Shown here one piece after another: positions 6,743 to 20,554 of a stretch of DNA of 27,998 nt. The translations under genes were made by a program, and so were the position numbers. This DNA is from a virus (Duplodnaviria; Heunggongvirae; Uroviricota; Caudoviricetes): positions 1 through 27,998 of IMG/VR virus record IMGVR_UViG_640753024_000003. One strand, 5' to 3'. The notes under the pieces were generated by a model. It had not been told where the DNA came from. It saw only the letters and a list, made by a program, of their open reading frames with translations, and ran no database searches. Every line of letters begins with the position of its first letter. Position 1 is the stretch's first letter.

Positions 6743-7033
6743 TTAGTGATTCAGGCCGTTACCGCGTCCGTCGAGAAAAACTTCCACGAGCAAATCACGG
6801 GTATAAGTGCGCTCGATGCCGCGATGCAGATAAAGCCGTCCGCGTAAATTAGCTGATGCAGTCCAGGTACCATCTTTGTGTTTGACCAGCATTCCTGGCA
6901 TGACCGCACCTCGATTAACGGTCTGCGTTCCATAATGTTGATGAACCATAAAAACTCCTGCCCGTAAGCTGGGCTGCTGAACATATAGAGACTTCTGCGC
7001 GTATTCAGGCGGTGGATGGCCGCCGGTTGTCAT
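6743..7033 (-). CDS. Hypothetical protein in the kil/cIII position downstream of pL
   Basis: 96-codon ORF; internal Met at 6949 is preceded by GGAG with 6-nt spacing and may be the true start (68 aa); no recognisable motif; not an N-family sequence. Confidence 0.4.
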
Positions 7034-7234
7034 AACTAAGCCGCCTCGTTGAAGCGACTAAGGTATGAAATGTTGAGTTAATTTCAGCTGGTCACACCGA
7101 CGTTCACGCGTCCGTTTCACCCCTCGCACTCCCCGAAGCCTGCTGAAATTCAAACTGCGGATCTAAGCGGTCATCGCAACGGTGAATCAGGTAGTTGCCG
7201 TATCGTTGTGTTGTTGCGATGAACTTATTTAAAA

Positions 7235-7300
7235 CTATAGTTGTTTTATCGTCAACAACAAAAGTTGTTTTATTGGTTGTTTTAGATATAACTGGTTGTA
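7235..7300 (-). promoter_or_regulatory. Putative OL operators and leftward promoter pL
   Basis: Minus-strand TTGACG-17 nt-TTAAAT promoter-like hexamers; 17-bp element aaaactatagttgtttt and palindrome aacaacaaaagttgtt built from the same AACAAC/GTTGTT half-sites found in OR. Confidence 0.5.
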
Positions 7301-7397
7301 TTTAGGATGGATTTATTTTGTGACTTGAATCGCATAGCGATAACTGAAGCGAGGTTATGGTGGTTTTTTTAACGGTGTGTGTGTGATGAGGGGAGGG

Positions 7398-7425
7398 CAA
7401 AAGAAAACCCGGCACGGTGACCGGG
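7398..7425 (-). terminator. Intrinsic terminator downstream of cI (minus strand)
   Basis: Stem cccgg/ccggg with 8-nt loop; on the minus strand followed by a T-rich tract (plus-strand aaagaaaa 7400-7407). Confidence 0.5.
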
Positions 7426-7546
7426 ATTCTTACGCCGTTAGGTAAAGATATTATTGCGGTGGCTTAATATTACTACCTAGAGCAAAGATAGGAATTAGTT
7501 CTTTACTGAATGAGCACAATGCCCAGTTGATAATTTTTAATTGGTA

Positions 7547-8236
7547 CTACCCATGCTTCCTATATGTCTGCGGCATGCTCCCAATAACCTTACCGAAGAT
7601 GAACACCCGGTTCATCTCGTCTTTCTCGATCGGGTCCCACGGTGAGTAGCTTTTGTTATCAGAGATGACCAGCAGCTTATCCTTCATCATTTGCAGGCGC
7701 TTTACATGGGCTGTGTCGTCGTACAGAAACGCATAGATACCATCACCGTCGAAAGATTTAACTGTGATATCAACGAACAGCAGATCACCTGGTTCGATCG
7801 TTCCTGACATGCTGTCACCACGCACGTTAATGATGCGGATATTTTCCGCCTTCCTACCATCGAACATGTGACGAGCATCGTCAAACGAGTACTCAACCGA
7901 GCGTAGAACTTCTACAAACTCACGGTTGATGACTCCCGGCCCAGCACTGACTTCTATATCAAGAACGTCAATCTTGAAGTATTTGGAATGGCTGACAGTT
8001 GATTGTATTGGTTGCACTGTACTGTCTGACATATTTCCAACGCCAGAAGATAACCATTCTGCGCGCACACCCAATGCGTTCGCGATCTCCACGATTTTAG
8101 TTGTTTGATTAGCTTTCCCTGTTTCGATTTTCTGAATAGCAGCCTGGCTAACCCCGACCAAATCCCCAAGCGCCTTTTGTGTAAGGCCTCGCGCTAATCT
8201 GGCTTCTTTAAGTCTTTCTGAGAGTGTTGTTTTCAT
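7547..8236 (-). CDS. cI: CI-type prophage repressor (N-terminal HTH, C-terminal LexA/S24-like autocleavage domain)
   Basis: Start placed at MKTTLSERLKEARLARGLTQKALGDLVGVSQAAIQKIE (HTH); C-terminal RGDSMSGTIEPGDLLFVD is an S24 peptidase-type motif; divergent from cro across an operator region. Confidence 0.85.
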   Translation of the reverse strand: MKTTLSERLKEARLARGLTQKALGDLVGVSQAAIQKIETGKANQTTKIVEIANALGVRAEWLSSGVGNMSDSTVQPIQSTVSHSKYFKIDVLDIEVSAGPGVINREFVEVLRSVEYSFDDARHMFDGRKAENIRIINVRGDSMSGTIEPGDLLFVDITVKSFDGDGIYAFLYDDTAHVKRLQMMKDKLLVISDNKSYSPWDPIEKDEMNRVFIFGKVIGSMPQTYRKHG

Positions 8237-8269
8237 AGTCCAAATGTACAACCAAGGTTTTATCCCATC

Positions 8270-8325
8270 AAACGAAAATGGTTGTTGACTAAAAACAACC
8301 ATAGTTTTAATCTTGATTCAAATTA
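8270..8325. promoter_or_regulatory. Putative OR operators with pR and pRM
   Basis: Plus-strand TTGACT-17 nt-TAATCT upstream of cro; palindrome ggttgtt-N7-aacaacc and 17-bp element aaaacaaccatagtttt, which is the reverse complement of the OL element apart from one base. Confidence 0.55.
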
Positions 8326-8640: not shown

Positions 8641-9180
8641 ATGCAACCACTTACATACCAACAGACTAGCGGATTTAGCCCGACTGCGGTGATAAATCGT
8701 TCTCAAACAAAACAGGTGCCAGGCCACGAAAAAATCCGTGATGCCGTCCGCGCCTGGTCGGCTGTAGATAATCAGGATGTCGTTGCCACACTCATTGTGA
8801 ATGAGTATCGGGAGCAGGGCGGCGGCACCATCGATTTCCCTGATGATGTCAGCCGTGCACGCCAGAAGCTGTTCCGCTTCCTCGATAACAAATTCGATTC
8901 TGAAAAATACCGAAATAACGTGCGTGAACTGACCCCGGTAATTCTGGCGGTACTACCGCTGGAATATCGCGGTTACCTGGTTGAGCAGGATAGCTTCATG
9001 GCTAGGTTGGCTGAAATGGAAAAGGAACTCAGTGAGGCAAAACAGGCTGTCATTCTCAACGCACCACGCCACCAGAAACTGAAGGAAATTAGTGAAGGTA
9101 TTGTGTCGATGTTTCGTGTGGACCCAGATCTGGCTGGTCCATTGATGGCGATGGTTACTACCATGCTGGGGGCGATATGA
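8641..9180 (+). CDS. CII-like regulatory protein (CP76-type), in the cII position
   Basis: 179-aa ORF between cro and O; family assignment from memory of the phage CII (CP76) family, not verified. Confidence 0.45.
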   Translation: MQPLTYQQTSGFSPTAVINRSQTKQVPGHEKIRDAVRAWSAVDNQDVVATLIVNEYREQGGGTIDFPDDVSRARQKLFRFLDNKFDSEKYRNNVRELTPVILAVLPLEYRGYLVEQDSFMARLAEMEKELSEAKQAVILNAPRHQKLKEISEGIVSMFRVDPDLAGPLMAMVTTMLGAI

Positions 9181-9266
9181 CAGGTTCAGAAATGGCGAAA
9201 GCCGGTCTGCTGGAACAGAACCGACTTTCAGGTGCAAATCGTAACACACTCATTGCGGGAGGAATT

Positions 9267-10196
9267 ATGGCAAACACTGCTGAGATATTCAATTTTCCAG
9301 TGCCGGATGCGGCACAAAAGGAGCCGCGCGTGGCAGATCTCGATGATGGTTATACGCGCATTGCAAATGAGTTGCTGGAAGCTGTGATGCTGGCCGGATT
9401 AACACAGCACCAGCTTCTGGTCTTTCTGGCTGTCATGCGCAAAACATATGGCTTTAATAAAAAACTGGATTGGGTTAGCAACGAGCAACTTTCCGAATTA
9501 ACCGGGATATTGCCGCACAAGTGTTCTGCTGCAAAAAGTGTTCTGGTAAAGCGTGGGATTTTTATTCAGAGCGGGCGGAATACCGGCATTAATAATGTGG
9601 TCAGTGAATGGTCAACATTACCCGAATCAGGTAAGAAAAATAAAGTTTACCTGAAAGAGGTAAATTTACCTGAATCAGGTAAAAAAAGTTTACCCAAATC
9701 AGGTAAAGGCGTTTACCCGAATCAGGTAAACACAAAAGACAAACTAACAAAAGACAATATAAAACCTTTTTCGTCCGAGAATTCTGGCGAATCCTCTGAC
9801 CAACCAGAAAACGATCTTCCTGTGGTGAAACCGGATGCTGCAATTCAGAGCGGCAGCAAGTGGGGGACAGCAGAAGACCTGACCGCCGCAGAGTGGATGT
9901 TTGACATGGTGAAGACCATCGCGCCATCAGCCAGAAAACCGAATTTTGCAGGGTGGGCTAACGATATCCGCCTGATGCGTGAACGTGACGGACGTAACCA
10001 CCGCGACATGTGTGTGCTGTTCCGCTGGGCATGCCAGGACAACTTCTGGTCCGGTAACGTGCTAAGTCCGGCCAAACTCCGCGACAAGTGGACCCAGCTC
10101 GAAATCAACCGAAACAAGCAACAGGCTGGCGTGATAGCCGGCAAACCAAAACTCGACCTGACGAACACTGACTGGATTTACGGGGTGGAGCTATGA
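9267..10196 (+). CDS. O: Replication initiator O (non-lambda N-terminal iteron-binding domain, lambda-like C-terminal P-interaction domain)
   Basis: Start placed at MANTAEIFNF (GGAGG ribosome-binding site; in-frame alternative start at 9177); C-terminal region (SKWGTAEDLTAAEWMFDMVKTIAPSARKPNFAGWANDIRLMRERDGRNHRDMCVLFRWACQDNFWSGNVLSPAKLRDKWTQLEINRNKQQAG) recognised as lambda O; iterons inside the gene. Confidence 0.85.
   Translation: MANTAEIFNFPVPDAAQKEPRVADLDDGYTRIANELLEAVMLAGLTQHQLLVFLAVMRKTYGFNKKLDWVSNEQLSELTGILPHKCSAAKSVLVKRGIFIQSGRNTGINNVVSEWSTLPESGKKNKVYLKEVNLPESGKKSLPKSGKGVYPNQVNTKDKLTKDNIKPFSSENSGESSDQPENDLPVVKPDAAIQSGSKWGTAEDLTAAEWMFDMVKTIAPSARKPNFAGWANDIRLMRERDGRNHRDMCVLFRWACQDNFWSGNVLSPAKLRDKWTQLEINRNKQQAGVIAGKPKLDLTNTDWIYGVEL
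9618..9775 (+). repeat. Replication origin: five ~19-bp iterons (TTTACCYGAATCAGGTAAA-like) followed by an A-rich unwinding region
   Basis: Direct repeats at about 9618, 9647, 9665, 9688 and 9711, each internally palindromic, then A-rich tract 9730-9775; embedded in the O coding region as in lambda ori. Confidence 0.8.
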
Positions 10197-11193: not shown

Positions 11194-11260
11194 TGAAACA
11201 GGTGAGTTGATTTCAAACTGTAGTACAATTCTCTCCAGTTTGAACAGGAAAGAATATGCT

Positions 11261-11593
11261 ATGAACCCTTATATTTATCTTGGTGGTGCAATACTTGCAG
11301 AGGTCATTGGTACAACCTTAATGAAGTTTTCAGAAGGTTTTACACGGTTATGGCCATCTGTTGGTACAATTATTTGTTATTGTGCATCATTCTGGTTATT
11401 AGCTCAGACGCTGGCTTATATTCCTACAGGGATTGCTTATGCTATCTGGTCAGGAGTCGGTATTGTCCTGATTAGCTTACTGTCATGGGGATTTTTCGGC
11501 CAACGGCTGGACCTGCCAGCCATTATAGGCATGATGTTGATTTGTGCCGGTGTGTTGGTTATTAATTTATTGTCACGAAGCACACCACATTAA
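11261..11593 (+). CDS. emrE: SMR-family multidrug efflux transporter EmrE
   Basis: 110 aa from MNPYIYLGGAILAEVIGTTLMKFSEGFTRLWPSVGTIICY..., recognised as EmrE; 4 TM helices; AT-rich cargo gene after ren as in DLP12. Confidence 0.95.
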   Translation: MNPYIYLGGAILAEVIGTTLMKFSEGFTRLWPSVGTIICYCASFWLLAQTLAYIPTGIAYAIWSGVGIVLISLLSWGFFGQRLDLPAIIGMMLICAGVLVINLLSRSTPH

Positions 11594-11848: not shown

Positions 11849-13375
11849 ATGAAAAAAGCCATAGCATATATGCGATTTTCATCACCAGGTCAGATGTCTG
11901 GCGACTCATTGAACCGACAGAGAAGACTTATTGCTGAATGGTTAAAGGTAAATAGTAATTATTATCTTGATACCATAACATATGAAGATTTAGGATTAAG
12001 TGCATTCAAAGGAAAGCATGCACAATCAGGAGCTTTTTCGGAATTTTTAGATGCTATAGAGCATGGTTATATATTGCCAGGAACTACATTGTTAGTTGAA
12101 AGTTTGGACAGACTTTCAAGAGAAAAAGTCGGTGAAGCGATTGAGCGTCTGAAATTGATTTTGAATCACGGTATTGATGTTATAACTCTTTGCGATAATA
12201 CAGTCTATAACATTGACTCTTTGAATGATCCATATTCATTAATAAAAGCCATACTTATAGCACAAAGGGCAAATGAAGAAAGCGAGATAAAGTCAAGTCG
12301 GGTTAAATTATCATGGAAGAAAAAACGGCAGGATGCACTGGAGTCAGGCACGATTATGACGGCGTCTTGTCCGAGATGGCTCTCATTGGATGACAAAAGA
12401 ACAGCTTTTATTCCAGACCCCGACAGGGTGAAAACGATTGAGCTAATTTTTAAACTCAGGATGGAAAGGCGATCATTGAATGCAATAGCCAAGTATTTAA
12501 ATGATCATGCTGTAAAAAATTTCTCAGGCAAAGAAAGTGCATGAGGGCCTTCTGTAATTGAAAAATTATTAGCGAATAAAGCTCTGATAGGTATATGCGT
12601 ACCTTCATATCGTGCAAGAGGTAAAGGAATAAGTGAAATCGCTGGCTATTATCCCAGAGTCATATCAGATGATTTGTTTTACGCTGTGCAGGAAATTCGG
12701 TTGGCACCTTTTGGTATTAGCAATAGTAGCAAAAATCCTATGTTGATAAATCTACTTCGAACAGTTATGAAGTGCGAGGCTTGTGGTAATACCATGATTG
12801 TTCATGCGGTATCTGGAAGTTTGCATGGCTATTATGTTTGTCCGATGAGAAGACTGCATCGATGTGACAGGCCATCAATAAAGAGAGATTTGGTTGATTA
12901 TAATATCATTAATGAGTTGCTTTTTAATTGTAGTAAAATCCAACCAGTTGAAAACAAGAAAGATGCTAATGAAACTTTAGAGTTGAAAATTATTGAGCTC
13001 CAGATGAAAATTAATAATTTAATTGCTGCATTATCTGTTGCGCCTGAAGTTACCGCTATAGCAGAAAAAATCAGAGTATTAGATAAGGAATTACGAAGGG
13101 CTTCGGTATCATTAAAAACTTTGAAGAGTAAAGCGGTGAGTTCACTTGGTGATTTTCATGCTATTGACTTAACCAGTAAAAATGGGCGAGAGCTATGTCG
13201 TACACTTGCCTATAAAACATTCGAAAAAATCATAATCAATACAGATAATAAAACCTGTGATATCTATTTTATGAATGGCATTGTTTTTAAACACTATCCT
13301 TTAATGAAAACAATATCCGCCCAGCAGGCGATAAGTACTCTCAAATATATGGTTGATGGTGAGGTTTATTTTTGA
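11849..13375 (+). pseudogene. ybcK: Large serine recombinase (YbcK-like) interrupted by a single in-frame TGA at 12542-12544
   Basis: Two same-frame ORFs (231 aa and 233 aa) separated only by one TGA; N-terminal resolvase/invertase catalytic domain (YMRFSSPGQ...SLNRQ); read-through sequence ...GKESA*GPSVIEKLLANKALIG suggests TGG(Trp) to TGA. Confidence 0.8.
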
Positions 13376-13639
13376 GTAATAATCACTTTTCCAACCGTGC
13401 TATAGTAAGAAAGTTAGGTAAGTACAATAAAAGTATCTATCCTGAACGAAGCGTCCTGAGCTATGGTTTTACTATAGGGACTGCCAATGGATGCTGGCGT
13501 TCCCGTTCTAGCAGTTCAACAATTCCCAATCACAAAACAATTCACTGATAACGAACTTTGCACACTCGCCTGGTTATGGCGAGCAGGGAATGTGATGTTA
13601 ATTGCCTACCAGAACGTTACTCATCTTCTTCAGGATGCG

Positions 13640-13647
13640 GAGCATGG
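13640..13647. repeat. Target-site duplication (left copy) GAGCATGG
   Basis: 8-bp sequence identical to 16090-16097, directly abutting the IS terminal inverted repeat. Confidence 0.85.
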
Positions 13648-13684
13648 GTAAGCGTGCAGCAAGAACCGTATTGACGGGGATGTG

Positions 13685-15223
13685 TTATTCAGTCGGCAGT
13701 GCTACGCGCCAGGGGAGCAGTTCGCCGACCCGGTTTATCGGCCAGTCGGCTATGACGTCAAGGACATAGCGGAGGTAGCTTTCTGGCTCCACTCCGTTCA
13801 GTTTGCACGTCCCGATCAGGCTGTACAGCAGCGCTCCCCGCTCTCCTCCATGATCCGAACCGAAGAACAGGTAGTTTTTGCGGCCCAGACTGACCATCCG
13901 CAACGCATTTTCAGCGATGTTATTGTCCGCCTCAGCCCAGCCATCATCTGCATAGTACGTCAGCGCCGGCCACTGGTTCAGGGCGTATGCGAACGCTTTC
14001 GCCAGTTCTGAGTGTCGCGACAGGGTTTTCATCTTTTCACGCAACCAGCTTTCCAGGGATTTCAACAGCGGTTTCGTTTTTCGCTGACGTTCAGCAAGCC
14101 GCTGCTCTGCCGGCATTCCCCTTATATCCGCCTCTATGGCGTACAACTGACCGATCTGCTCCAGGGCTTCTTCCGTCAGTGCTGACGGGATGCGGACGTG
14201 CACATCGTGGATCTTTCGGCGGGCATGAGCCCAGCAGGCAGCTTCCGTTATCCCACCATTGCGATACAGCTCGTTGAACCCGGCGTACGCATCCGCTTGC
14301 AGCACACCGCTGAAGCAGGCAAGATGAGTCTGCGGATGGATGCCTTTTCTGTCCGGGCTGTAAGCGAACCACACTGCAGGTGCCAACGCTGACCCGGCAT
14401 TGCGGTCATCACGAACATACGCCCACAACCGCCCGGTCTTCGTCTTCTTATTACCCGGCAGCAGTACCTGGACCGGGGTATCATCGGCATGGAGTTTGCC
14501 GTCAGTCATGACATAGCCATGAAGCGCCTCTTCCAGCGGAGACAGCAGCCGGCAGCATGCATCCACCCAGCCCGACAGCAGTGAACGGCTCAGCTCCACA
14601 CCTTGCCGGCCGTATATTTCTGACTGGCGATACAGCGGGGTGTGCTCTGCATACTTCGAGGTCAGCACGCGGGCCAGCAGCCCCGGTCCGGCGATACCCC
14701 GCTCGATGGGCCGCGAAGGTGCAGGTGCCTGCACGATGGCATCGCACTGAGTACAGGCATGTTTTTCCCGTACCGTCCGGATAACCCGGAAGGCACTACG
14801 CATCAACTCCAGCTGTTCGGCGGTATCCTCGCCCAGATAGCTCAGTGAACCGCCGCAGTTCGGGCAGCACGGCGCCGCAGGCAACAGTCGCTTTTCGTCA
14901 CGGGGTAGTGATTCAGGGAACGGCTTACGGGTGCGGGTCTGACGCAACGGACGCTGTACAGCCGGGTCATACACCCTACCAGTCAGCGTATCGCTCTCTT
15001 TCTGAAGCCGGTTCAGATCGGCTTCCATTTGTGCGATACGGCGGGAGACTTTTTCGGAACGACTGCCGAAGTTCATCCGGCGGAGTTTATCCAGCTGCGC
15101 CTGCAGATGGTCTATTTCGCGCTCCCAGTTGCTCAGCTTTTCCTGCAGGGCGTGGATCAGCGCTTCCTGTTCGGCCAGGCGCTGTTTCAGCAGGAAGATG
15201 TCGTCAGAAGAGATGTCGTTCAT
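13685..15223 (-). CDS. tnpC: IS66-family transposase TnpC
   Basis: 512-aa ORF with N-terminal coiled coil/leucine zipper, CxxC...CxxC zinc finger (CCPNCGG...CTQCD) and DDE-type core. Confidence 0.9.
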
Positions 15224-15272
15224 AAGCCCGTATTTTACCGGGCTTATTCTGTGACAACCAGGATAAAGAGAT

Positions 15273-15620
15273 TTACAGCATGGTCAGGGAGGTCAGCAAC
15301 CGCTTGGGCTGTCGCCAGTCGATACCTTCCAGCAGCATCGCCAGCTGCGCCTGCGTAAGGAACACTTTGCCATCACGGGCTGACGGCCAGGCGAAGCGCC
15401 CACGCTCCAGCCGTTTGGTCAGGAGGCACAGTCCGTCACCGGTGGACCACAGCAGTTTAACCTGACTGCCGCTGCGGCCCCGGAAAATGAAAACATGGCC
15501 GGACATGGGATCGTCTTTCAGCGCCGTTTGTACTTTCGCAGCCAGGCCGTTGAAGCCATTTCTCATATCGGTGATACCGGCAACCAGCCAAATTTTGGTC
15601 CCGGAAGGTAACGGGATCAT
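15273..15620 (-). CDS. tnpB: IS66 accessory protein TnpB (Orf2)
   Basis: 115-aa [33 protein letters not shown]... in the middle position of the IS66 operon, overlapping tnpA stop. Confidence 0.85.
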
Positions 15621-16018
15621 CGCTTCAGTTCCTGTATCAGCAGAGTCAGGAGCTTTTCGCTGACATTGCCATTGAAGCGGAGCGTCCCGTGCCGGAACGT
15701 TACCTCACAGCTGATACTGAGGGTTTCCGGGTCCTCTGCGAGCGATTCTGGCTGTTCGGCAGCTGCATCGAGAGTCACAGGAAGTAGCTGGGGGCTCTCT
15801 GAAGAAGGTAATAGCAGCTTTCCCTCGCGCCATTGTTGTCGCCATTTGAACAACAGATTGGCGTTAATGCCATTTTCAAGAGCAAGTTTTGAGATGGATA
15901 TCCCGGGTTCACAGGAGGCAGCAACGAGCTGCTGTTTAAATTCGGGAGGATAATTAGGGCAGCCTTTTCGCCTGCCGGGAGTCACATTTTTCTGCATATC
16001 TGACACTTTGGTTCCCAC
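15617..16018 (-). CDS. tnpA: IS66 accessory protein TnpA (Orf1, HTH)
   Basis: 133-aa ORF in the first position of the IS66 operon; ATGA overlap with tnpB. Confidence 0.8.
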   Translation of the reverse strand: MGTKVSDMQKNVTPGRRKGCPNYPPEFKQQLVAASCEPGISISKLALENGINANLLFKWRQQWREGKLLLPSSESPQLLPVTLDAAAEQPESLAEDPETLSISCEVTFRHGTLRFNGNVSEKLLTLLIQELKR

Positions 16019-16089
16019 TACTTATTTGGTGGACACCACTTTGTCTAATTTGTCAGATTCTGACCAGACGGTTCAGGCTGTACGCTTAC

Positions 16090-16097
16090 GAGCATGG
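16090..16097. repeat. Target-site duplication (right copy) GAGCATGG
   Basis: Identical to 13640-13647. Confidence 0.85.
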
Positions 16098-16278
16098 TGA
16101 GGCTGGTCACTTCACTTCCATCGAGCAAGAATATCCCCAGAGACTCAACAGAGCGCGAGCAATCCTCGCCCGAGAAACGGCACATGTAAAACTTCAGCCG
16201 TGGCAGGATGATAAGTGGAGTCAAGTATTGCCGCATTTACCTCAGAATCTGTTTCAATAAAGGCGCTAGTTAGTAAGG

Positions 16279-16304
16279 CTTCCGTCATTCTGCGATGACG
16301 GAAG
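16279..16304. other. Perfect 10-bp inverted repeat hairpin (cttccgtcat-N6-atgacggaag)
   Basis: Lies 18 nt after the stop of the IS-interrupted small ORF and 130 nt upstream of the HNH-motif gene; no U-tract. Confidence 0.4.
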
Positions 16305-16434
16305 TGCGGGCTGCGTACGGGAGAGCAATTGCATGAATAATATAAATATTCCGCTCACTCCATATAGCGATTTCTGATACAAACTTATCTATTGTGGTAA
16401 AATTATAGAAACAAACTTATAGCGTACTAACCAT

Positions 16435-17217
16435 ATGGACAATATTAATAAACACGGGCTCTCAAGAAGAATACCTGAGACAATAAAACGTCAGATAAGG
16501 CAAAGGTGCGGCTTTGGCTGTGTAATTTGTGGATTTGGATTTTATGATTATGAGCATTTTAAACCTGACTTCGTTGATGCCAAAATACATGATCCGAATG
16601 GAATGACACTTCTTTGCTCCCAATGCAATCAAAAAAGAGCTCGTGGTAGACTTTCAGCACAGACAGTGGAAATAGCTGACAGAAATCCCAAGTGCTTACA
16701 GGCTGGTTTTGCAAATGAAATGTTTGATTTTCATAATGAGCCTATAACAGTAAAATTTGCAGGAGTGACGTTTCATAACTGTCAAAATTTGATTGTAGTC
16801 AACGAACAACCCATTCTTTCTGTGAAACCTTCACCCATACCACATGGACCGATGCTTTTATCAGGAATTTTCTGTAATTCTATTGGTAAGGAGACTTTAC
16901 TGATAGATGAAAATGAATGGAAAGCTAAATCAGACAATTGGGATGTGGAGTGTACCGGCCCGCGTATAACAATACGACGTGGGCCAGGAGAGTTTGCCCT
17001 CGTTCTAAAAATGGAACCTCCAACAGGATTGATTGTTGAGCGTCTTGATATGTTGTATGAAGGGGTCAGGATGAAAGGAGATAAAGATCTGCTGGAAGTT
17101 TCGATTAATGGAGGTCCCTTGCACAGATGGCAATCATGCTCAATGTCAAATTGCCATACAGGGCTTGCGATTCAGGGCGGTATTAGAGCTGCTAATGATC
17201 CTTTGTATTGCGCCTAA
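16435..17217 (+). CDS. Hypothetical protein with N-terminal HNH/His-Me-finger nuclease-like zinc-finger motif and ~190-aa uncharacterised C-terminal domain
   Basis: 260-aa ORF; residues ~25-66 CGFGCVICGFGFYDYEHFKPDFVDAKIHDPNGMTLLCSQCNQ give Cys pairs flanking conserved His and Asn as in HNH nucleases; AT-rich codon usage; occupies the variable cargo slot between the recombinase and ybcN. Confidence 0.55.
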   Translation: MDNINKHGLSRRIPETIKRQIRQRCGFGCVICGFGFYDYEHFKPDFVDAKIHDPNGMTLLCSQCNQKRARGRLSAQTVEIADRNPKCLQAGFANEMFDFHNEPITVKFAGVTFHNCQNLIVVNEQPILSVKPSPIPHGPMLLSGIFCNSIGKETLLIDENEWKAKSDNWDVECTGPRITIRRGPGEFALVLKMEPPTGLIVERLDMLYEGVRMKGDKDLLEVSINGGPLHRWQSCSMSNCHTGLAIQGGIRAANDPLYCA

Positions 17218-17257
17218 ATCCACTAAATTGATTTTCAACAATCAACTTGCCATAATT

Positions 17258-17290
17258 AAGTCACCGGAGTTTGAACTCCTCCGGTGACTT
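17258..17290. other. Perfect 12-bp inverted repeat (aagtcaccggag-N9-ctccggtgactt)
   Basis: Strong hairpin/palindrome 41 nt after the HNH-gene stop; no flanking U-tract on either strand, so terminator versus protein-binding site is unresolved. Confidence 0.4.
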
Positions 17291-17311
17291 CTGCGCTAAA
17301 CGGGGACGTTT

Positions 17312-17413
17312 ATGCGCACATACAATCCAACCTCTCTTCTCCATTCACAGATGCAGAAATGCACCTGCGATATTTTGCATCCAGCGTTTGATCTCTGCGG
17401 AGGTGAAGCGTGA
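17312..17413 (+). CDS. ylcH: Small protein YlcH-like (33 aa)
   Basis: Hand-translated [33 protein letters not shown]; stop overlaps the GTG start of ybcN; position matches DLP12 ylcH-ybcN. Confidence 0.45.
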
Positions 17414-17865
17414 ACCTCCCACAAGATGGTATCAAATTGCATCGCGGTAACTTCACCGCTATCGGTCGGCAGATCCAGCCTTATCTGGAGGACGGCAAAT
17501 GCTTTCGCATGGTGCTTAAACCGTGGCGCGAGAGACGCAGCCTTTCCCAGAATGCACTCAGCCACATGTGGTACAGCGAAATCAGTGAATACCTCATCAG
17601 CAGGGGTAAAACGTTCGCCACTCCAGCTTGGGTAAAAGATGCTCTCAAACACACTTATCTCGGTTATGAAACCAAAGAACTGGTTGATGTCGTAACCGGT
17701 GAAATCACCACCATTCAGTCATTACGTCATACCTCCAATCTTGATACCGGAGAGATGTATGTCTTCCTGTGTAAGGTTGAAGCCTGGGCGATGAATATTG
17801 GCTGCCACCTGACTATTCCGCAGAGCTGCGAGTTCCAGCTGCTGCGCGACAAGCAGGAGGCGTAA
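17410..17865 (+). CDS. ybcN: YbcN-like nin-region protein
   Basis: 151-aa ORF, GTG start, immediately upstream of ninE with TAATG overlap; recognised as DLP12 YbcN-like. Confidence 0.75.
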
Positions 17866-19471: not shown

Positions 19472-20554
19472 TTAGAACTGGTAAACCATACCTACAGCAA
19501 CGATATCATCGGTAGCAACGCCAGATGCTTTCGTGAAATCGCTCTTATCAATCAGGTTGATTTTGTAGTCAACAAAAGTGGACATATTTTTGTTGAAGTA
19601 ATAGGTTGCACCTACATCAACATATTCAACCAGGTCCTGATCACCCCAAACACCCAAGTCTTTTCCTTTAGAATGCAGGTAAGCAACGGATGGACGCAGG
19701 CCGAAGTCGAACTGATATTGTGCAACAGCTTCGAAGTTTTGTGCTTTGTTGGCAATATGGTTATTACCAAAAACAGTCATGTTCTGGGTTTCAGAATAGG
19801 TGGTGGCCAGATAGATGTTGTTCGCATCATATTTCAGACCAGCTGCCCATACTTCAGCATTTTGACCAGAAGCATTCAGACCGTTGTTACCGTAGATAAC
19901 CTGATTATTAGTGCGATCAGATTTAGCATAGGTTGCACCCACGCCGAATCCTTCATACTCATAAGTAGTTGAGAAACCGAAACCATCGCCATTAGCTTCA
20001 GTTACTTCATTTCGGTCATTTTTGCCCTGATACTGAGCTGCAAAGTTCAGGCCATCAACCAGACCAAAGAAGTCGTTGTTACGATAAGTTGCAACACCTG
20101 TGGTGCGACCAGTCATGAATACATCTGTTTGGGTCCAGGTATCGCCACCGAATTCTGGCAGAACGTCAGTCCACGCACCGATGTCGTATGCTACACCGTA
20201 GTTACGGCCGTAATCGATTGAGCCGTAGTCACCGAATTTCAGGCCTGCAAATGCAAGACGGGTTTTGTCTTTGGAGGAACCTTGAGATTCAGCGCGGTTG
20301 CCTTTGAATTCATATTCCCACTGACCGAAACCAGTCAGTTGATCGTTGATTTGGGTTTCACCTTTGAAGCCAAGACGGGCATAAGTAGTATCACCATCAT
20401 CTGCATCATTAGAGGAGAAGTAGTGCTTAGCATTAACTTTCCCGTACAGATCCAGCTTGTTACTGTCTTTATTATAAATTTCAGCTGCCTGAGCAGACAT
20501 CGCCATCAGTACTGATGCAGCTACAGCAGAAATTGCCACTGTTAATTTTTTCAT
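19472..20554 (-). CDS. nmpC: Prophage-encoded general porin of the OmpC/OmpF/NmpC family (intact)
   Basis: 360-aa ORF with signal peptide ([23 protein letters not shown]) and C-terminal VYQF beta-barrel signal; antisense between Q and the lysis genes as in DLP12. Confidence 0.9.

Follow-up and report, generated by a model that had tools for sequence, protein, structure and literature searches.

Insertion sequences of the IS66 family end in imperfect inverted repeats that measure about 20-30 bp and start with 5'-GTAAGCG, and IS679 is a member of this family from E. coli that has been studied experimentally. The E. coli IS66-family elements (ISEc8/ISEc22-like elements and IS679) share the gene order tnpA-tnpB-tnpC with a 4-nt overlap between tnpA and tnpB, an IS66-type DDE transposase and GTAAGCG repeats; they are about 2.4 kb long and duplicate 8 bp of their target. 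All these features recur in the element described here, which is located in a window of 27,998 nucleotides (the whole stretch of phage DNA that was analyzed), and no structural difference from the E. coli elements was found; the insertion site alone is new to the searched collections.

The DNA that received the element also has described relatives. The nin region of the DLP12 prophage of E. coli K-12 (ren-emrE-ybcK-...-ybcN-ninE-ybcO-rusA-ylcG-quuD) consists of the same backbone genes in the same order but its slot is occupied by ybcL/ybcM/ylcH, and there is no counterpart of the P22AR_C ORF interrupted here; furthermore, the prophage in the window is a fuller lambda-like element located at ybhC, not at argU. 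The lambdoid Bro-N/P22AR_C genes found between ren and ninB (Ant, Rha and Roi-type) share with the interrupted ORF the C-terminal P22_AR_C domain and the position upstream of ninB/ybcN, whereas the Bro-N domain is missing in our case, and antirepressor activity of the truncated form is putative. P22AR_C has been listed among the domain-shuffling modules of the “Bro network” (PMC10111431), and the literature on this domain is sparse. Against this background, the locus very probably represents a recent insertion of an IS66-family element into a truncated P22AR_C ORF of a lambda-like prophage, next to an HNH-like gene that is an independent cargo and not a dedicated partner of this ORF.

The element consists of the following parts:

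13648-16089, minus strand: complete IS66-family insertion sequence, 2442 bp (family profiles and 100% identical full-length E. coli copies)
13648-13669, no strand: terminal inverted repeat at the tnpC-proximal end, GTAAGCGTGCAGCAAGAACCGT, 18 of 22 positions matching the other end
13685-15223, minus strand: tnpC, IS66-family DDE transposase, 512 aa (Pfam and NCBIfam)
15273-15620, minus strand: tnpB, IS66 Orf2 accessory protein, 115 aa (Pfam TnpB_IS66, PF05717, 1.2e-38, 131 bits; NCBIfam NF033819, above the cutoff)
15617-15997, minus strand: tnpA, IS66 accessory HTH protein (Pfam HTH_Tnp_1, PF01527, 47.8 bits; NCBIfam NF047595, 97 bits, cutoff 74)
16068-16089, no strand: terminal inverted repeat at the tnpA-proximal end, GTAAGCGTACAGCCTGAACCGT, 18 of 22 positions matching the other end

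TnpC matched DDE_Tnp_IS66 (PF03050; 4.9e-106, 354.7 bits, cutoff 23.1), the additional Pfam domains zf-IS66, LZ_Tnp_IS66 and DDE_Tnp_IS66_C, and the NCBIfam equivalog NF033517 (460 bits, cutoff 180). The start of tnpA is that of the RefSeq (PGAP) annotation, mapped from identical copies, and the open frame reaches a GTG at 16018; the end of this gene overlaps tnpB by 4 nt (15617-15620). Both ends of the element begin with GTAAGCGT, and the inverted repeats start with GTAAGCG. Together, the profile matches of the three ORFs, the inverted repeats and the 8-bp duplication bear out the family assignment proposed in an earlier sequence-only reading of the window, and the coordinates of that reading were confirmed. 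Copies in ETEC H10407 and many other E. coli strains, located in many unrelated loci, match the 2442-bp sequence with 100% identity, and perfect 8-bp duplications (GAGGATAC, CTTCAGAC) were detected at two of the three other 100% identical copies that we checked. By these sequence comparisons, the element is an intact IS66-family insertion sequence, as originally suggested, and the identical copies at many unrelated loci point indirectly to an active one. RefSeq gives the label “ISEc22 family” to copies whose matched part, the terminal ~260 bp, is ~98.5% identical. The IS genes lie on the minus strand, opposite to the nin-region genes of the prophage.

The element is bounded by a target-site duplication:

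13640-13647, no strand: left copy of the 8-bp duplication, GAGCATGG, present once in empty sites
16090-16097, no strand: right copy of the 8-bp duplication, GAGCATGG, identical to the left copy

By chance, 8 bp would match at two fixed positions with a frequency of 4^-8 (~1.5e-5), and the perfect duplication that the sequence-only reading had reported is proven independently by the empty sites. Strains A19 and D2 have the same lambda-like prophage at ybhC in an IS-free form, with a single GAGCATGG, and the alignments of the window with both of these break exactly at the ends of the IS and overlap by exactly 8 bp. The two IS-free alleles are base-identical to the window for more than 1 kb on each side of the site, with zero differences from the A19 prophage over the flanks 12545-13647 and 16098-17540; a search for IS-free relatives that differ in sequence at the junction found none. 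A search with both IS junctions showed that 0 of the 5426 complete E. coli genomes carry the IS at this site, and the left junction had no match in the GTDB species-representative genomes or the JGI metagenomes. Given its absence from all these complete genomes, the insertion is recent and private, and the identity of the flanks to those in A19 also agrees with the earlier suggestion of a recent event. The insertion allele is new to the searched collections; RefSeq genomes already carry annotations of the IS, of the ORF that it interrupts and of the downstream gene. Most likely, the IS66-family element transposed recently into the lambda-like prophage beside ybhC, the lambda attachment site; the TnpC transposase, together with the accessory TnpA and TnpB, would have made a staggered 8-bp cut, the repair of which would produce the GAGCATGG duplication, a chemistry that we infer from knowledge of the IS66 family.

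The insertion splits a single ORF on the plus strand into two parts:

13487-13647, plus strand: 5' part of the 107-codon P22AR_C ORF, codons 1-53 and 2 nt of codon 54 (D2 and A19 have the same CDS intact, WP_000338665.1)
16098-16260, plus strand: 3' part of the ORF, from the last nt of codon 54 to the TAA stop, with no in-frame start codon left upstream

The sequence-only reading had reconstructed a 71-codon ORF split at codon 18. The sequence was restored exactly and an annotated ORF is indeed split, but the real frame, reconstructed by removal of the IS and one copy of GAGCATGG, is open from the ATG at 13487 and encodes 107 aa, of which the 71-aa sequence represents residues 37-107, such that codon 18 becomes codon 54. 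In D2 and A19, the empty site is spanned by the intact CDS WP_000338665.1, and RefSeq annotates the 107-aa ORF as a “P22AR C-terminal domain-containing protein”. In the window, the 5' part now ends at an IS-supplied TAA (13649-13651), resulting in a 54-aa stub. Because only this stub and an untranslatable 3' fragment are left, any residual function of the ORF is gone.

The reconstructed 107-aa protein matches the Pfam domain P22_AR_C (PF10548; 51.1 bits, cutoff 22.4) over residues 15-85 and phrog_7640 over the full length (2.8e-69), whereas an N-terminal Bro-N, ANT, P22_AR_N or KilA-N module was looked for in this ORF and found to be absent. A 202-aa relative in other prophages consists of Bro-N and P22_AR_C, and the DNA homology to this gene, at ~84% identity to its 3' half, begins at window position 13500 (codon 5); the first four codons of the ORF, including the ATG, are unrelated ybcK-side DNA, that is, the 3' flank of ybcK. 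By its homology, the ORF is the N-terminally truncated 3' half of an antirepressor-family (“Bro network”) gene encoding Bro-N and P22AR_C, and hence the “small gene” of the sequence-only reading is an annotated ORF but one that comprises the C-terminal half of a larger gene. The 5' half was lost before the IS insertion, at the junction with the emrE-ylcJ-ybcK module. We also considered emrE-ybcK as a serine-recombinase element inserted into a full-length antirepressor gene, but found no Bro-N half upstream of emrE; ren ends ~70 nt before emrE. Phage records name relatives of the ORF “Rha protein”. No NCBIfam match was obtained for the ORF or the HNH-like protein, PDB sequence searches returned nothing usable, and the PADLOC defense models had no match for the ORF, the 202-aa relative, the HNH-like protein or an alternative 169-aa cargo.

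How much the loss of the ORF matters depends on whether the truncated form was still functional. The chances are about even that the 107-aa ORF was already a non-functional remnant and that the IS insertion is selectively neutral. The missing Bro-N half and the borrowed first four codons fit this possibility, as do the K-12 DLP12 prophage, where the ORF is lacking and the match ends just past ybcK, the unannotated fragments of the ORF carried by lambda-like phages, and the low-confidence helical hairpin (pLDDT 61) predicted as the structure of a 96%-identical relative. In the lineage of the window and D2 alleles, there are 8 nonsynonymous and 5 synonymous specific changes, which do not differ significantly from neutrality; as a test of function, these counts are too small. 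However, the frame is open in every sampled allele, at a near-constant length (99-109 aa, mostly 107) across alleles that are 81-96% identical, with matches in roughly 1700 E. coli genomes, the pairwise dN/dS values among the alleles are 0.12-0.63, although recombination with full-length paralogues could also yield values below 1, and a viable isolated phage, Turner, carries an ORF of the 107-aa type. Considering the open frame, the dN/dS values and phage Turner, the ORF may not be just a dead remnant, and there could be a cost to losing it. The stronger proposition, namely, that the stand-alone P22AR_C ORF is a selectively retained mini-protein whose frame has been kept open in phage Turner and in prophages of the DLP12 and lambda-like types, appears improbable. 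If correct, the mini-protein could, for example, be a decoy or a dominant-negative partner for full-length Bro/Ant antirepressors of co-resident lambdoid prophages, and the knock-out by the IS would change prophage cross-talk or induction in the strain.

Downstream of the ORF, a hairpin is followed by a region of variable content:

16279-16288 / 16295-16304, plus strand: perfect hairpin of 10 bp, its loop 6 nt long, lacking a U-tract; part of the conserved flank that belongs to the ORF module and outside the cargo cassette
16312-17227, plus strand: swappable cargo cassette, an AT-rich leader and the 260-aa HNH-like gene (homology to other prophages stops at ~16311 and resumes at ~17228)
16435-17217, plus strand: 260-aa HNH-like gene, inside the cargo cassette

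The hairpin is located between the ORF and the HNH-like gene, exactly as the sequence-only reading described it; in related alleles, this position is occupied by another stem with T6 after it. We do not regard the hairpin as an intrinsic terminator of the canonical kind: it lacks a U-tract, and the terminator scan made no call.

The 260-aa protein shows a below-threshold match to PF01844 (14.4 bits, cutoff 21.4), weak PHROG matches to HNH families, and fold matches to the HNH domains of Cap5 and McrA with probabilities of 0.8-0.9 but E values above 0.1. The residues C25, C29, C32, E40, H41, H52, C61 and N65 of this protein are invariant, with C64 nearly so. The sequence-only reading proposed that the interrupted ORF was a regulator or partner of this gene, and a small regulator, antitoxin or partner, with the pair deregulated or inactivated by the IS, would be compatible with the arrangement of the two genes, which are adjacent and co-oriented, with the HNH-like gene starting 174 nt past the stop codon of the ORF. 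In complete E. coli genomes, moreover, the HNH-like gene is always found behind the ORF (79 of the 5426 genomes). Nearly all these pairs, however, are at least 99% identical, comprising one near-clonal haplotype, and the pairing therefore reflects linkage rather than independent association. In other prophages and in phage Turner, the same ORF precedes at least four unrelated cargo genes, the alternatives including the 169-aa phrog_1779 and proteins of 309 and 118 aa. Conversely, the Enterobacter homologues of the HNH-like protein (50-79% identity) are encoded directly after gene P or beside an integrase, the Pseudomonas homologue is encoded in the early region of a prophage, on the opposite strand, and no P22AR_C neighbor was found at any of these Enterobacter and Pseudomonas prophage loci. 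Given that the ORF meets other cargoes and that homologues of the HNH-like gene exist without the ORF, there is no support for a specific role as regulator or partner; the cassette boundary at ~16311, which separates the two genes, and the origin of the ORF, which derives from part of an antirepressor-family gene rather than being a dedicated small gene, also argue against such a role, which we regard as very unlikely. Within the 79-genome haplotype, a functional link may exist. Most likely, the HNH-like gene, which has its own leader, is independent of the ORF and constitutes a single-gene cargo in a variable slot.

A different consequence of the insertion would be polar: an IS of 2.4 kb that separates the nin/Q genes from the early promoter region, and is inserted in reverse orientation, could cut read-through to the Q antiterminator (quuD). 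The position of the element is suitable, between P/ren and ybcN-ninE-ybcO-rusA-quuD, all on the plus strand, and there is a weak terminator-like hairpin on the plus strand inside the IS (15917-15933). Furthermore, no N-like ORF was identified between kil and cI, and therefore suppression of the IS polarity of the protein N type may be unavailable. The gene for the CI-type repressor of the prophage is located at 7547-8302 on the minus strand. Promoter-like sites downstream of the IS were no more common in our scan than in shuffled sequence, which weighs against polarity, and polarity could in any case be an added effect compatible with the main explanation. That polarity is the main consequence of the insertion is possible but rather doubtful; if so, late-gene expression would be crippled, helping the prophage to stay locked in place.

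Thus, the reading that we favor remains a recent insertion into a truncated ORF, and we expect its phenotypic effect to be small or limited to the possible polarity on the downstream nin/Q genes. The landing of an IS in a prophage antirepressor remnant is an ordinary event, and the insertion carries little weight beyond annotation. It can serve as a strain marker and, thanks to the existence of the isogenic IS-free prophages in A19 and D2, as a natural knock-out of the P22AR_C ORF; comparison with these strains could show whether prophage induction responds to the truncated antirepressor-type ORF or to transcription across this interval. Of more interest, although a separate question, are two neighbors of the insertion: the cargo slot with its variable content and the 260-aa HNH-like gene, which is widely distributed.

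The window holds a lambda-like prophage adjoining ybhC, the lambda attachment site, with the gene order int, xis, exo, bet, gam, kil, a CI-type S24 repressor gene, a cro-like gene, O, P, ren, emrE, ylcJ, ybcK, the interrupted ORF, the 260-aa HNH-like gene, ybcN, ninE, ybcO, rusA, ylcG, quuD, a porin gene, lysis genes and terminase. Between kil and cI, there is no sign of a lambda N-like antiterminator gene, and the ~600 bp from the kil-like gene to the CI-type repressor gene (6950-7546) contain no ORF longer than 37 aa. An overlapping palindromic, iteron-like repeat, TTTACCTGAAAGAGGTAAATTTACCTGAATCAGGTAAA (9646-9683), lies within the O-like replication gene (9177-10196) and probably represents the origin repeats. 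The SMR efflux gene emrE (11207-11593) and an OmpC/NmpC-like porin gene downstream of quuD (19472-20554, minus strand) are host-type cargo; DLP12 likewise carries emrE and a porin gene downstream of quuD.

The element interrupting the ORF comprises the following features:

13648-16089: IS66-family element, 2442 bp, between two copies of GAGCATGG
13640-13647 and 16090-16097: target duplication GAGCATGG, 8 bp
minus strand: TnpC-type ORF, 512 aa, with domains DDE_Tnp_IS66, zf-IS66, LZ_Tnp_IS66 and DDE_Tnp_IS66_C
minus strand: TnpB (IS66 Orf2), 115 aa
minus strand: TnpA, HTH, 126/133 aa

All three minus-strand ORFs exceed the curated cutoffs of Pfam and NCBIfam, tnpA shares 4 nt with tnpB, and the termini are imperfect inverted repeats (GTAAGCGTGCAGCAAGAACCGT / GTAAGCGTACAGCCTGAACCGT, 18 of 22 positions matching). 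The element thus has all the sequence-readable defining features of the IS66 family, and its domains, gene order, 4-nt overlap, inverted repeats and 8-bp duplication bear out the family assignment made in the sequence-only reading. Many E. coli, ETEC H10407 among them, carry full-length copies, 100% identical over 2442 bp, in their chromosomes or on plasmids. Two of the three identical copies inspected have perfect 8-bp duplications of their own (GAGGATAC and CTTCAGAC), and the third adjoins another IS66 element.

Using as an empty-site query the window sequence minus the element and one duplication copy, we found a 100% match over 1151 bp in strain D2 and matches over at least 80% of the query length in 78 genomes. 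The window is collinear with the prophage of strain A19: the 13,647 bp on the left side of the element contain 9 mismatches, and the right side shows no differences up to 17540, 4 between 17540 and 24,000, and 40 in the whole 10.4-kb alignment. For both strains, the alignments of the two flanks share exactly 8 bp, in agreement with the GAGCATGG copies on both sides and the recent insertion proposed from them, and A19 and D2 both carry an intact CDS across the insertion point. Neither junction of the element with its flanks was detected in any of 5426 complete E. coli genomes, and the left junction had no match in GTDB species representatives or JGI metagenome contigs. Given the identical copies, the near-identical empty sites, the 8-bp overlap and junctions found nowhere else, the insertion is clean, recent and private to the source strain.

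The 71-codon ORF reconstructed from sequence alone was correct as far as it went, and this version is also reported by some gene callers (protein sequences P0017 and P0018), but the real frame is open further upstream, to an ATG at 13487, and encodes 107 aa. In IS-free genomes, the RefSeq CDS for this frame is WP_000338665.1, “P22AR C-terminal domain-containing protein”. Homology searches recovered a conserved ORF: residues 15-85 match Pfam P22_AR_C with 51 bits (cutoff 22.4), phrog_7640 spans the entire protein, and the C-termini of “anti-repressor Ant” PHROGs match more weakly. The domain-shuffling modules of the “Bro network” include P22_AR_C (PMC10111431). The homologous gene of other lambdoid prophages is longer, at 202 aa, and has a Bro-N domain N-terminal to P22_AR_C. 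Because DNA homology to this gene begins at 13500, in the fifth codon of the 107-aa frame, and continues past the stop to ~16311, the ORF is the remaining 3' half of an antirepressor-family gene of the Bro network. The 5' half was lost where the ORF meets the emrE-ylcJ-ybcK module, and the ATG derives from the ybcK side.

Evidence on whether the ORF was functional before the insertion points both ways. The “MDAGV...” form falls into seven 90%-identity clusters (107 aa in six of them, 109 aa in the seventh) that share 81-96% identity with the reconstruction, and in every one the frame stays open; pairwise dN/dS is 0.12-0.63 among alleles and 0.17-0.30 against the full-length gene; and the viable, isolated phage Turner has the same ren-emrE-ybcK-107-aa arrangement. 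However, the alleles appear to be mosaics with full-length paralogues, from which the constraint may have been inherited, and the changes specific to the window/D2 lineage (8 nonsynonymous, 5 synonymous) are not distinguishable from neutrality. The ORF is also absent from K-12 DLP12 and occurs as unannotated fragments in lambda-like phages. In phage records H177-H184 (e.g. NC_049946.1, 41451-41612), an unannotated stretch has a translation ~52% identical to ORF residues 1-54, which suggests that decayed remnants of this antirepressor-type gene are common in these phages.

Between the P22AR_C ORF and the short ylcH-like ORF/ybcN lies a slot with swappable cargo:

window ~16312 to ~17227, also D2 and A19: cassette with the 260-aa HNH-like gene
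L002 4547-5056, L003 3950-4456, also L006 (other prophages): 168/169-aa protein, matching phrog_1779 as tested for the L002 copy
L004 3910-4839 (another prophage): 309-aa protein
L005 4173-4529 (another prophage), also phage Turner: 118-aa protein
L014 3786-4142: further cargo-slot interval

In K-12 (DLP12), the slot contains ybcL/ybcM. The slot is a hot spot for single-gene swaps, with at least five unrelated alternatives (260, 169, 309 and 118 aa, and K-12 ybcL/ybcM). No PADLOC match was found among the slot cargoes tested; the slot is a candidate site for accessory or defence genes of lambdoid prophages.

The 260-aa protein, encoded at 16435-17217 on the plus strand, matches no family above threshold in Pfam, NCBIfam or PADLOC, and phrog_6544 (unknown function) covers its full length. 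It has an N-terminal Cys4/His/Asn HNH-like module in which, among 36 homologues, C25, C29, C32, E40, H41, H52, C61 and N65 are invariant and C64 nearly so. In the AlphaFold model (pLDDT 80), the N-terminal part may resemble the HNH domains of CBASS Cap5 and McrA (weak local matches, ~85-140 aligned residues), and the C-terminal all-beta domain had no PDB match. Relatives of 50-79% identity are widespread, occurring in Enterobacter, Klebsiella, Burkholderia, Comamonas, Pseudomonas and Vibrio; the Enterobacter and Pseudomonas relatives with a checked genomic context are located in the early regions of prophages.

The proposal that the ORF is a regulator or partner of the HNH-like gene is unsupported, given that other cargoes follow the ORF and the homologues in Enterobacter and Pseudomonas prophages lack a P22AR_C neighbour. 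The 260-aa gene is found in 79 of the 5426 genomes, where it amounts to essentially a single haplotype (≥99% identity). Its homologue lies directly after gene P or beside an integrase in Enterobacter prophages and, in a Pseudomonas prophage, within the early region but on the opposite strand, with no P22AR_C gene nearby in those examined. The association is one-sided and bound to one haplotype, and therefore is what linkage, rather than a functional pair, would produce.

The 10-bp perfect hairpin noted between the two genes is present at 16279-16304, without a U-tract; the 91-nt stretch containing it (16255-16345) folds at -27.4 kcal/mol (z = -2.35), and a terminator scan did not call it. In L002, L003 and L006, the same ~45-bp stretch after the ORF stop forms an 8-bp stem, TGCCAGCA/TGCTGGCA, followed by T6, a canonical intrinsic terminator. 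Because these alleles fold the stretch into a different stem, the window hairpin is a variant of the 3' end of the ORF module and not a regulatory element conserved with the HNH-like gene. The cassette boundary lies immediately 3' of this stretch.

The element interrupts codon 54 of the 107-aa frame, predicted to be the end of the first long helix (the structure model is of low confidence, pLDDT 61). It leaves a 54-aa stub with a TAA supplied by the element and a 3' fragment without an in-frame start codon; the ORF is knocked out. A second recent inactivating change in this prophage affects the ybcK serine recombinase gene (11849-13375), an intact 508-aa CDS in A19 and D2: a single TGG-to-TGA substitution (stop codon at 12542-12544; position 12544 is A in the window and G in A19) divides it into ORFs of 231 and 233 aa. 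Since the element lies upstream of quuD, in reverse orientation within the rightward early/nin transcription unit, it could conceivably have some polar effect on Q. Overall, the insertion is an ordinary event, correctly observed from the sequence, and annotations of the IS66 element, the ORF family and the adjacent 260-aa gene already exist in public genomes.
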